Made by a program: the position numbers and the translations under genes. A model generated the notes under the pieces. The model saw only the letters and a program-made list of their open reading frames with translations. It ran no database searches and was not told the origin of the DNA. A stretch of DNA of 64,000 nt from a virus. The stretch lies in IMG/VR virus record IMGVR_UViG_3300043571_000443, positions 1-64,000 of that record; one strand, 5' to 3'. Shown here one piece after another: positions 1,566-2,210 of this stretch (positions within the stretch are counted from its first letter, which is position 1; each line of letters opens with the position of its first letter).

Positions 1566-2210
1566 ATGAATTTTCCCCACGACATAATTAGGGACGCCTG
1601 GGCGGTGCGCCATGGTGGCCGCACTGAGGTACCCGTAGGCCAGGACAGGATTGACGTAGTGGTGTCGGGTACCCAGTACGACACGCTGGTGGAGGTAAAG
1701 CCCGCCCACCAGGTGCGCGAGGCCATCGGCCAGGGCAACAGTTATCAACGACGCTGGGCCCGGCCCAGTAAAAAGCACCTAGTGCTATTTCACGATACTG
1801 GTCTGCCGGCTAAGTCCACGCTGGAGCGACTGCGGACCCACCAGGACTCTGGTGAACTGTCCAGCTTTACCTGGGAGATAGTGCCAGCGCTGCCCAGACC
1901 TAGCTACCACATTGCCGGGGTGCCGATCAGTTTGGAGCGGCCTGTCAAAGATATTTGCGATCAGGTGGGCCGGATCAAGCGGGACTTTCAGAGCGGATCC
2001 ATTGCCGCCGAGGATCAGGCTTTTCTACACCACCTGATCATTGGCGGCCAACGTCAGGCCCGGGGTGCCCAGCTAGTCCAGGGCCGCCTAGGCGTCGAGC
2101 TGCAGGTGGTGCGGTTCGATAGCAACACCTTTACCCTGTCCAGCCAGACTGCTGCGGTGGACTGGCTGCGGCAAGCCAATTACAGAACCGTTTACGGAGG
2201 ATCACGATAA
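1566..2210 (+). CDS. PD-(D/E)XK nuclease-family protein with possible DCL/DUF3223-like C-terminus
   Basis: TEVPV..RIDVV..LVEVK..EAIGQ..Y catalytic pattern; stop overlaps the cas6 start (TAATG). Confidence 0.6.
   Translation: MNFPHDIIRDAWAVRHGGRTEVPVGQDRIDVVVSGTQYDTLVEVKPAHQVREAIGQGNSYQRRWARPSKKHLVLFHDTGLPAKSTLERLRTHQDSGELSSFTWEIVPALPRPSYHIAGVPISLERPVKDICDQVGRIKRDFQSGSIAAEDQAFLHHLIIGGQRQARGAQLVQGRLGVELQVVRFDSNTFTLSSQTAAVDWLRQANYRTVYGGSR

Follow-up and report, generated by a model that had tools for sequence, protein, structure and literature searches.

The gene that heads the cas operon of a lake-water phage encodes a 214-residue protein, P0001, which falls within the PD-(D/E)XK nuclease superfamily by its modelled fold and its catalytic motifs. 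It is quite possible, although we place it still short of probable, that this protein supplies the DNA-cutting step to a Cascade devoid of Cas3, and hence acts as a Cas3 substitute; this reading draws on gene context, on a predicted structure and on analogy with other Cascades that have exchanged their nuclease.

The phage and its reduced type I-E locus

The DNA comes from a complete, integrase-carrying tailed phage of lake water, whose IMG/VR record totals 74,186 bp with 127-bp direct terminal repeats and a GC content of 56.6%. The window, by which we mean the whole stretch of DNA that was analysed, is the first 64 kb (64,000 nucleotides) of this record. Across 22 studies, metagenomes of lake water and fresh water contain near-identical DNA. 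An integrase, a sigma factor, an SSB, a DnaN-like clamp, and a methyltransferase are encoded within 11 kb of the locus. The tyrosine integrase (minus strand) and the phage sigma factor (plus strand) are found just past the CRISPR array, at 6584-8152 of the window, with 94-99% conservation among relatives. A temperate lifestyle is probable for this phage. No host array was found by a CRISPR-repeat scan of genome contigs, which returned four single chance matches. The features of the locus, together with the large terminase, are as follows:

674-1495, minus strand: 273-residue ORF, cas8e-like by its ESM Atlas neighbours, 89-91% conserved in relatives
1556-1561, plus strand: GAGGAA, Shine-Dalgarno-like, 4 nt before the ATG of the nuclease gene (read from the sequence)
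1566-2210, plus strand: nuclease gene encoding P0001, 214 residues, two domains, head of the operon (ORF and translation)
2196-2212, plus strand: GGAGGA within the 3'-terminal part of the nuclease gene, then TAATG, where the stop of this gene overlaps the cas6e start (read from the sequence)
2210-2821, plus strand: cas6e, 203 residues (PF08798, E 1.5e-31; TIGR01907, 54.3 bits with a cut-off of 45.2; PADLOC Cas6/Cas6e)
2829-2880, plus strand: two CCCAC-N4-GTGGG hairpins between cas6e and cas7e (pattern scan, repeat finder)
2917-4170, plus strand: cas7e, 417 residues (PF09344, E 4.9e-69; TIGR01869, 184.8 bits with a cut-off of 178)
4163-4609, plus strand: short cas5e, 148 residues (TIGR01868, 109.9 bits with a cut-off of 69; PADLOC Cas5e, E 9e-41)
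4619-4870, plus strand: short hairpin repeats with a GTGGATC tail, five to seven copies, directly 3' of cas5e (pattern scan, repeat finder)
6066-6540, plus strand: CRISPR array with 37-nt repeats (hairpin and 8-nt GTTTCTCC tail) and spacers of ~35 nt (repeat finding)
24610-26016: large terminase

The earlier note, made from the letters alone, had placed an ORF at 1566-2210 of the plus strand, and sequence and translation agree exactly, with the ATG at 1566 and the TAA at 2208-2210. It had also set this gene at the head of a cas operon, coupled to cas6e through a TAATG overlap, which is confirmed: the downstream products are recognised as Cas6e, Cas7e, and Cas5e by profile, all three above the NCBIfam equivalog cut-offs. 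The nuclease gene is the first plus-strand gene of the operon, since the gene upstream (674-1495) is divergent. Its stop codon and the cas6e start codon (ATG, 2210-2212) share one base, and GGAGGA (2196-2201) is located 8 nt upstream of this ATG. Further downstream, the cas5e start overlaps the cas7e end by 8 nt. Cas6e keeps H17 and its G-rich loop without variation. Of the Cas proteins, however, it varies most among close kin (in some, 70-72% identity, versus 81-92% for the others), and three relatives carry a 24-residue insertion after its residue 42 (loci compared: window 2210-2821, L002:4823-5503, and L006:1394-2077). A 173-residue ORF (4928-5449) found 3' of cas5e is 89-93% conserved in relatives and returns no family match; the only strong sigma-70-like promoter match, at 4900-4929, stands before it.

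The divergent 273-residue ORF does not return any Pfam, NCBIfam, PADLOC, or PHROG match. In the ESM Atlas, CRISPR_Cse1 is assigned (score 0.95) to every one of its 30 nearest clusters, several of them short (267-362 residues). This ORF is probably a truncated Cas8e that comprises the N-terminal part only, language-model features being a lead and not a test. Six-frame profile analysis of the whole 74-kb genome returned no match for Cas3_HD, Helicase_C, Helicase_C_2 (DinG type), Cas1, or VRR_NUC, nor for the Pfam families CRISPR_Cse1 and CRISPR_Cse2 that would report the full-length Cas8e and the Cas11 of type I-E Cascade, whereas control genomes responded to the profiles for Cas3_HD, the helicases, Cse1, Cse2, Cas1, and VRR_NUC. 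These missing matches, together with the cas8e-like ORF, therefore make the locus a type I-E derivative composed of the N-terminal part of Cas8e, Cas7e, a short Cas5e, and Cas6e, plus P0001.

The geometry of the CRISPR repeats, a hairpin and, after it, a tail of 8 nt, is type I-E-like, and a second array is found near 14.7 kb. The repeat stem, CCCAC-N3-5-GTGGG, is present in 45 copies in the 74 kb, clustered in intergenic regions, at 213-609, 2829-2866, 4619-4846, 6066-6527, 13758-13797, 14539-15004, 23410-23488, and 62442-62675 in the window, and at 70609-70673 and 73597 past it. The 3' tails of these hairpins vary by cluster (GTGGATC, GTTTCTC, GCCTG), and several hairpins on the minus strand read as hairpin-plus-T-run terminators. 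The trailer-end spacers are common to related phages, while the leader-proximal ones differ (window 6066-6540; L017:2100-2340; L018:3130-3430), indicating that the arrays turn over although the phage encodes no Cas1. A search of IMG/VR with the 24-nt cores of four long spacers found no protospacers: two of the four had no match, and the other two matched only the homologous arrays of related phages.

Fold and family of the nuclease

The AlphaFold2 model of P0001, built with an alignment of close and distant members as input, has a pLDDT of 91.2 and a pTM of 0.84, and divides the protein in two:

1566-1895, plus strand: residues 1-110, predicted N-terminal minimal PD-(D/E)XK (RecB/NucS-like) domain (AlphaFold2 model, structural matches, invariant residues, omega)
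1887-2207, plus strand: residues ~108-214, predicted C-terminal alpha/beta domain with no clear known fold (secondary structure from the AlphaFold2 model)

In the model, residues 1-110 form an alpha-beta-beta-beta-alpha-beta core (helix 5-16, strands 19-24, 27-33, and 39-46, helix 47-63, strand 68-75). D30 is located on strand 2, E43-x-K45 on strand 3, and Q56 and Y60 on the helix after it, which we take to be the RecB/NucS/Cas4-type arrangement. When the model is compared against representative structures, VIA-align reports the nuclease domain of NucS (2vld) as the top match (Z 10.2, rmsd 2.2 over 93 residues), along with AF1548 (Z 9.2), Can1 (Z 8.1), VC1899 (Z 8.0), CdiA-CT toxins (Z 7.6-7.9), Can2 (Z 7.7), and Card1 (Z 6.8). 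NucS and AF1548 set aside, more than 40 PD-(D/E)XK entries match, with many restriction enzymes below the top ranks. Foldseek analysis against the PDB returns weak matches only, again with PD-(D/E)XK-type nucleases, and against viral models (BFVD) it returns nuclease-type proteins, down to E 1e-6. The identity as a PD-(D/E)XK protein, proposed in the earlier note, is thus upheld by the model and by its superposition on NucS.

An alignment of 11 sequences, with identities down to 25-37%, leaves D10, A13, E21, D30, E43, V44, K45, G55, Q56, S59, Y60, H92, Y114, and L154 invariant. The E..D..EVK..GQ..Y motif that had been read from the translation as intact-looking (E21, D30, E43-V-K45, G55-Q56, Y60) is real and beyond chance. 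By the fold of its model and these catalytic motifs, P0001 belongs to the PD-(D/E)XK superfamily but lies outside every described sequence family. No curated family scores above threshold, the best being SfsA (18.1 bits versus a cut-off of 22.8), HSDR_N_2 matches weakly two of the 11 family members (best E 2.5e-4), and P0001 returns no NCBIfam, PADLOC, or PHROG match; a sequence search of its profile against solved structures returns noise only.

The C-terminal domain follows the order beta-beta-alpha-alpha-beta-beta-beta-alpha in the model and closes on a conserved G-G/V-S-R tail. Its only structural match, a middling one, is 2k0m (Z 7.1), an uncharacterised NMR structure for which a literature look-up found nothing. 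Folded by itself, this domain reaches a pLDDT of 50.6, too poor for a fold search.

P0001 was compared with the nucleases known from CRISPR systems and with its nearest structural match. Cas3 was rejected, the fold being different and neither Cas3_HD nor Helicase_C being found in the 74-kb genome. Like Cas4, P0001 would be a RecB-like PD-(D/E)XK nuclease encoded in a CRISPR locus and possesses the QxxxY motif, but it has neither the Fe-S cysteine cluster nor Cas1-Cas2 neighbours; with one cysteine in the protein (C131), no Cas1 in the genome, and no sequence match, Cas4 was rejected as well. So was a nuclease linked to CARF or SAVED, such as Can1, Can2, and Card1, there being no CARF match and the likeness being limited to residues 1-110. 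The NucS/EndoMS nuclease domain shares the minimal RecB-like core with D...ExK and Q...Y; however, identity is 13%, and NucS is a mismatch repair protein with an N-terminal dimerisation/DNA-binding domain, whereas the extra domain of P0001 is C-terminal and its gene resides in a cas operon.

Two precedents exist for a Cascade associated with another nuclease. HNH domains replace Cas3 in type I-E, as Cas5-HNH, and in type I-F, as Cas8-HNH (PMC10910872, PMC11794572, PMC11480323), and a VRR-NUC domain, also of the PD-(D/E)XK type, is reported as a fusion to Cas11 in type I-E systems (PMC10910872). The present locus resembles HNH-Cascade in being a type I Cascade without cas3, whose effector operon encodes a small and presumably non-processive nuclease, and in having a type I-E-like backbone as in Cas5-HNH. 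In HNH-Cascade, however, the HNH domain is fused into Cas5 or Cas8, Cas11 is present, and activity has been shown, whereas P0001, known from genes and a model, is a separate PD-(D/E)XK protein with an extra C-terminal domain, and the locus is devoid of Cas11, has a truncated Cas8e, and is carried by a phage. The VRR-NUC-Cas11 protein likewise attaches a nuclease of the PD-(D/E)XK superfamily to type I-E Cascade, an attachment that is a proposal in the case of P0001, but P0001 is encoded by a stand-alone gene beside cas6e. Since its C-terminal domain is alpha/beta in the model and not a helical bundle, P0001 would have no Cas11 part. Identity with such a fusion was rejected, as no VRR_NUC or Cse2 match was returned and the C-terminal domain is mixed alpha/beta.

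Selection, synteny, and distribution

Compared with three relatives, the nuclease gene has a dN/dS ratio (omega) of 0.13-0.17, which separates into 0.07-0.08 for the nuclease domain and 0.20-0.29 for the C-terminal domain; the corresponding values are 0.13 for cas7e and 0.09 for cas5e. The gene is under purifying selection as strong as that on cas7e and cas5e. Three metatranscriptome libraries, from two studies, yielded assembled contigs over the gene, one of which (1,040 nt, ~89% identity) spans positions 1599 to 2587, across the nuclease/cas6e junction. As DNA carry-over is possible, this cover is a weak hint of expression only, and the stretch without cover at 4213-5382 carries no meaning either way.

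The gene order, a cas8e-like gene on the minus strand followed by nuclease-cas6e-cas7e-cas5e, is kept in six further loci (at least four contigs) as far as the contigs reach. P0001 homologues of 81-90% identity come from four metagenome contigs and from two phage contigs of IMG/VR, 72.8 and 77.5 kb in size. The one-base overlap between nuclease and cas6e is also present in L001 and L002, and the conserved 173-residue ORF comes after cas5e in the relatives too. Every locus retrieved comes from close relatives within a single phage lineage, so that this conserved synteny amounts to one observation and not several. Scans of contigs with alignments returned close kin only.

At larger distances, P0033 (43% identity to P0001) and P0062 (47% identity to Cas7e) each come from just one ENA contig, 5,812 bp long in both cases. 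The two proteins are probably from the same contig, judging from this equal size, which fits a whole module. P0032, the closest distant homologue of P0001 (47%), is located on a 92,216-bp contig. None of the Cas7e matches, nor of the Cas6e matches listed, sits on a contig of that size, so P0032 may be devoid of a cas link. Used as a query in viral and metagenome contigs, P0032 returned no match. Intermediate Cas6e/Cas7e pairs are found on contigs of 2,504 and 11,978 bp. A 202.7-kb IMG/VR phage contig encodes a type I-E-like operon in canonical order (L016:2961-10444), with ORFs of 977 and 684 residues followed by cas7, cas5, and cas6; its Cas7e is only ~28-36% identical to that of the window phage, and no P0001 homologue was found on it. 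Synteny in homologous loci, to which the earlier note had pointed, thus holds for order and overlap in close kin (81-90%), whereas farther out it comes down to P0033 and P0062, with none for P0032.

P0001 has 25 close homologues. HMMER analysis of 1.84 billion representatives reports 12 matches, i.e. one close-kin cluster, eight full-length proteins (27-47% identity), two fragments, and one protein of 3,763 residues, with no fusion of P0001 to a Cas protein among these representatives. The 3,763-residue metagenomic protein, P0040, matches P0001 residues 32-107 in six separate stretches (E 4e-5) and appears from its sequence to be a giant protein of repeated PD-(D/E)XK-like units. No match was returned by tblastn with P0001 or P0035 in GenBank phages and PLSDB plasmids, and the family profile was not found in 401 Actinomycetota genomes or in four other genomes.

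Role of the nuclease

In the favoured reading, a reduced type I-E Cascade carried by the phage, which comprises a truncated Cas8e, Cas7e, a short Cas5e, and Cas6e and is devoid of Cas11, Cas3, and Cas1-2, would have P0001 as its effector nuclease. Translational coupling would cause P0001 to be made together with Cas6e. Its C-terminal alpha/beta domain, or the conserved C-terminal tail, may then dock it onto the crRNA-loaded complex, and the RecB/NucS-like PD-(D/E)XK site would cut the target DNA at or near the R-loop, the outcome being a local cleavage like that of HNH-Cascade and not the processive shredding typical of Cas3. Cascade binding, substrate, and target-dependent activation are the parts of this scheme that we infer.

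The assignment as a Cas3 substitute draws on the operon position and coupling of the gene, the lack of any other candidate effector, a selection similar to that on cas genes, and the HNH and VRR-NUC precedents. It is also favoured by the probable co-occurrence of P0033 and P0062 at 43-47% identity and, weakly, by the RNA-library contigs over the gene, for which DNA carry-over is possible. The restriction of the loci to close kin, P0032 without a Cas link, the lack of fusions, the 202-kb phage without a homologue, and the lack of a protospacer in IMG/VR for the four spacers searched count against it, as does the proposal that nuclease-free CRISPR systems of phages rely on Cas proteins of the host or serve as repressors (PMC7162821). 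The notion of a Cascade-recruited nuclease put forward in the earlier note therefore survives in part: overlap, synteny, selection, an intact site, and the absence of a Cas3 match agree with it, while distant synteny relies on one pair of contigs of equal size and P0032 has no Cas link. A complex prediction of P0001 with Cas6e (one job, controls not run) gave a score of 0.00, which is evidence neither way.

P0001 might instead be an independent phage nuclease whose only tie to the cas genes is co-transcription and which, acting without Cascade, serves recombination, repair, host-DNA degradation, or anti-defence, or is a selfish endonuclease, the mini-Cascade then being a nuclease-free binder or repressor or borrowing Cas3 from the host. 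We consider this rather unlikely. Small PD-(D/E)XK nucleases are common as stand-alone phage genes, and many are among the BFVD matches, yet the family of P0001 is very rare (eight full-length distant clusters out of 12 matches) and returned nothing from GenBank phages, plasmids, or the 401 Actinomycetota genomes; such rarity and absence from the searched collections are unlike a general-purpose phage nuclease. P0032, with no Cas match on its 92,216-bp contig, and the lack of Cas fusions among the 1.84 billion representatives agree with independence, but the one-base overlap with cas6e and the divergent promoter region in common with the cas8e-like gene, kept in all kin, do not, nor does the probable co-occurrence with Cas7e at 43-47% identity. 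Nuclease-less phage CRISPR systems are well documented, with host Cas use or transcription repression as proposed modes (PMC7162821), and type I-E Cascade without Cas11 is reported still to silence genes (PMC12235044). The locus resembles those nuclease-less systems in being phage-borne with compact arrays and devoid of Cas1/Cas2 and Cas3, but they are described without a recognisable interference gene (PMC7162821), whereas the present operon starts with a nuclease gene that is intact.

Alternatively, P0001 could serve guide biogenesis or spacer uptake, either by Cas4-like trimming with a host Cas1-Cas2 or by trimming the hairpin RNAs cut by Cas6e. The RecB-like site with its QxxxY motif, as in Cas4, would suit the former, as would the turnover of the leader end of the array, with trailer spacers kept, in a phage without Cas1. 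However, the single cysteine C131 leaves no room for the four-cysteine cluster of Cas4, the genome encodes no Cas1-Cas2 partner, and type I-E systems are not known to use Cas4. Production coupled with that of the RNA-processing enzyme Cas6e and the 45 Cas6e-type hairpins across intergenic regions would suit the trimming of RNA, but no RNA-binding domain is recognised in P0001. Overall, this role appears improbable. Lastly, a Cascade-gated toxin, in which target recognition would unleash a non-specific nuclease in the manner of abortive infection, as with Can1, Can2, and Card1 in type III systems, is highly improbable and found no specific support when raised in the earlier note, since the resemblance of the nuclease domain to Can1 (Z 8.1), Can2 (Z 7.7), Card1 (Z 6.8), and CdiA-CT toxins (Z 7.6-7.9) reflects a shared minimal fold, P0001 has no CARF or other known sensor domain, neither a cyclase nor an immunity gene is evident, and host killing would bring no obvious benefit to a temperate phage.

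Returning to P0001 as the Cas3 substitute, we propose, tentatively and as no more than possible, that a stand-alone RecB/NucS-like nuclease with an undescribed docking domain is the natural cutter of a type I-E Cascade that has a truncated Cas8e and neither Cas3 nor Cas11, in a temperate lake phage. If this functional link does not hold, the locus is still a clear phage-borne type I-E derivative without matches to the Cas3 HD domain, the SF2/DinG helicases, Cas11 (Cse2), and Cas1, for which repression or the use of host Cas3 are the candidate modes. If it does hold, the locus would be a nuclease-substituted Cascade that comprises a separate two-domain PD-(D/E)XK protein and a truncated Cas8e, has no Cas11, and travels in a phage, and would represent a third independent way, after Cas3 and fused HNH domains, to arm Cascade. 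With five unique proteins and ~1,255 residues in total, it would be a very compact RNA-guided DNA cutter, and could give engineers a new class 1 cutter that is small and possibly site-specific. The loss of Cas3 would then be offset not only by HNH fusions but also by the recruitment of a separate PD-(D/E)XK protein, and the phage would keep interference capacity in less than 4 kb.
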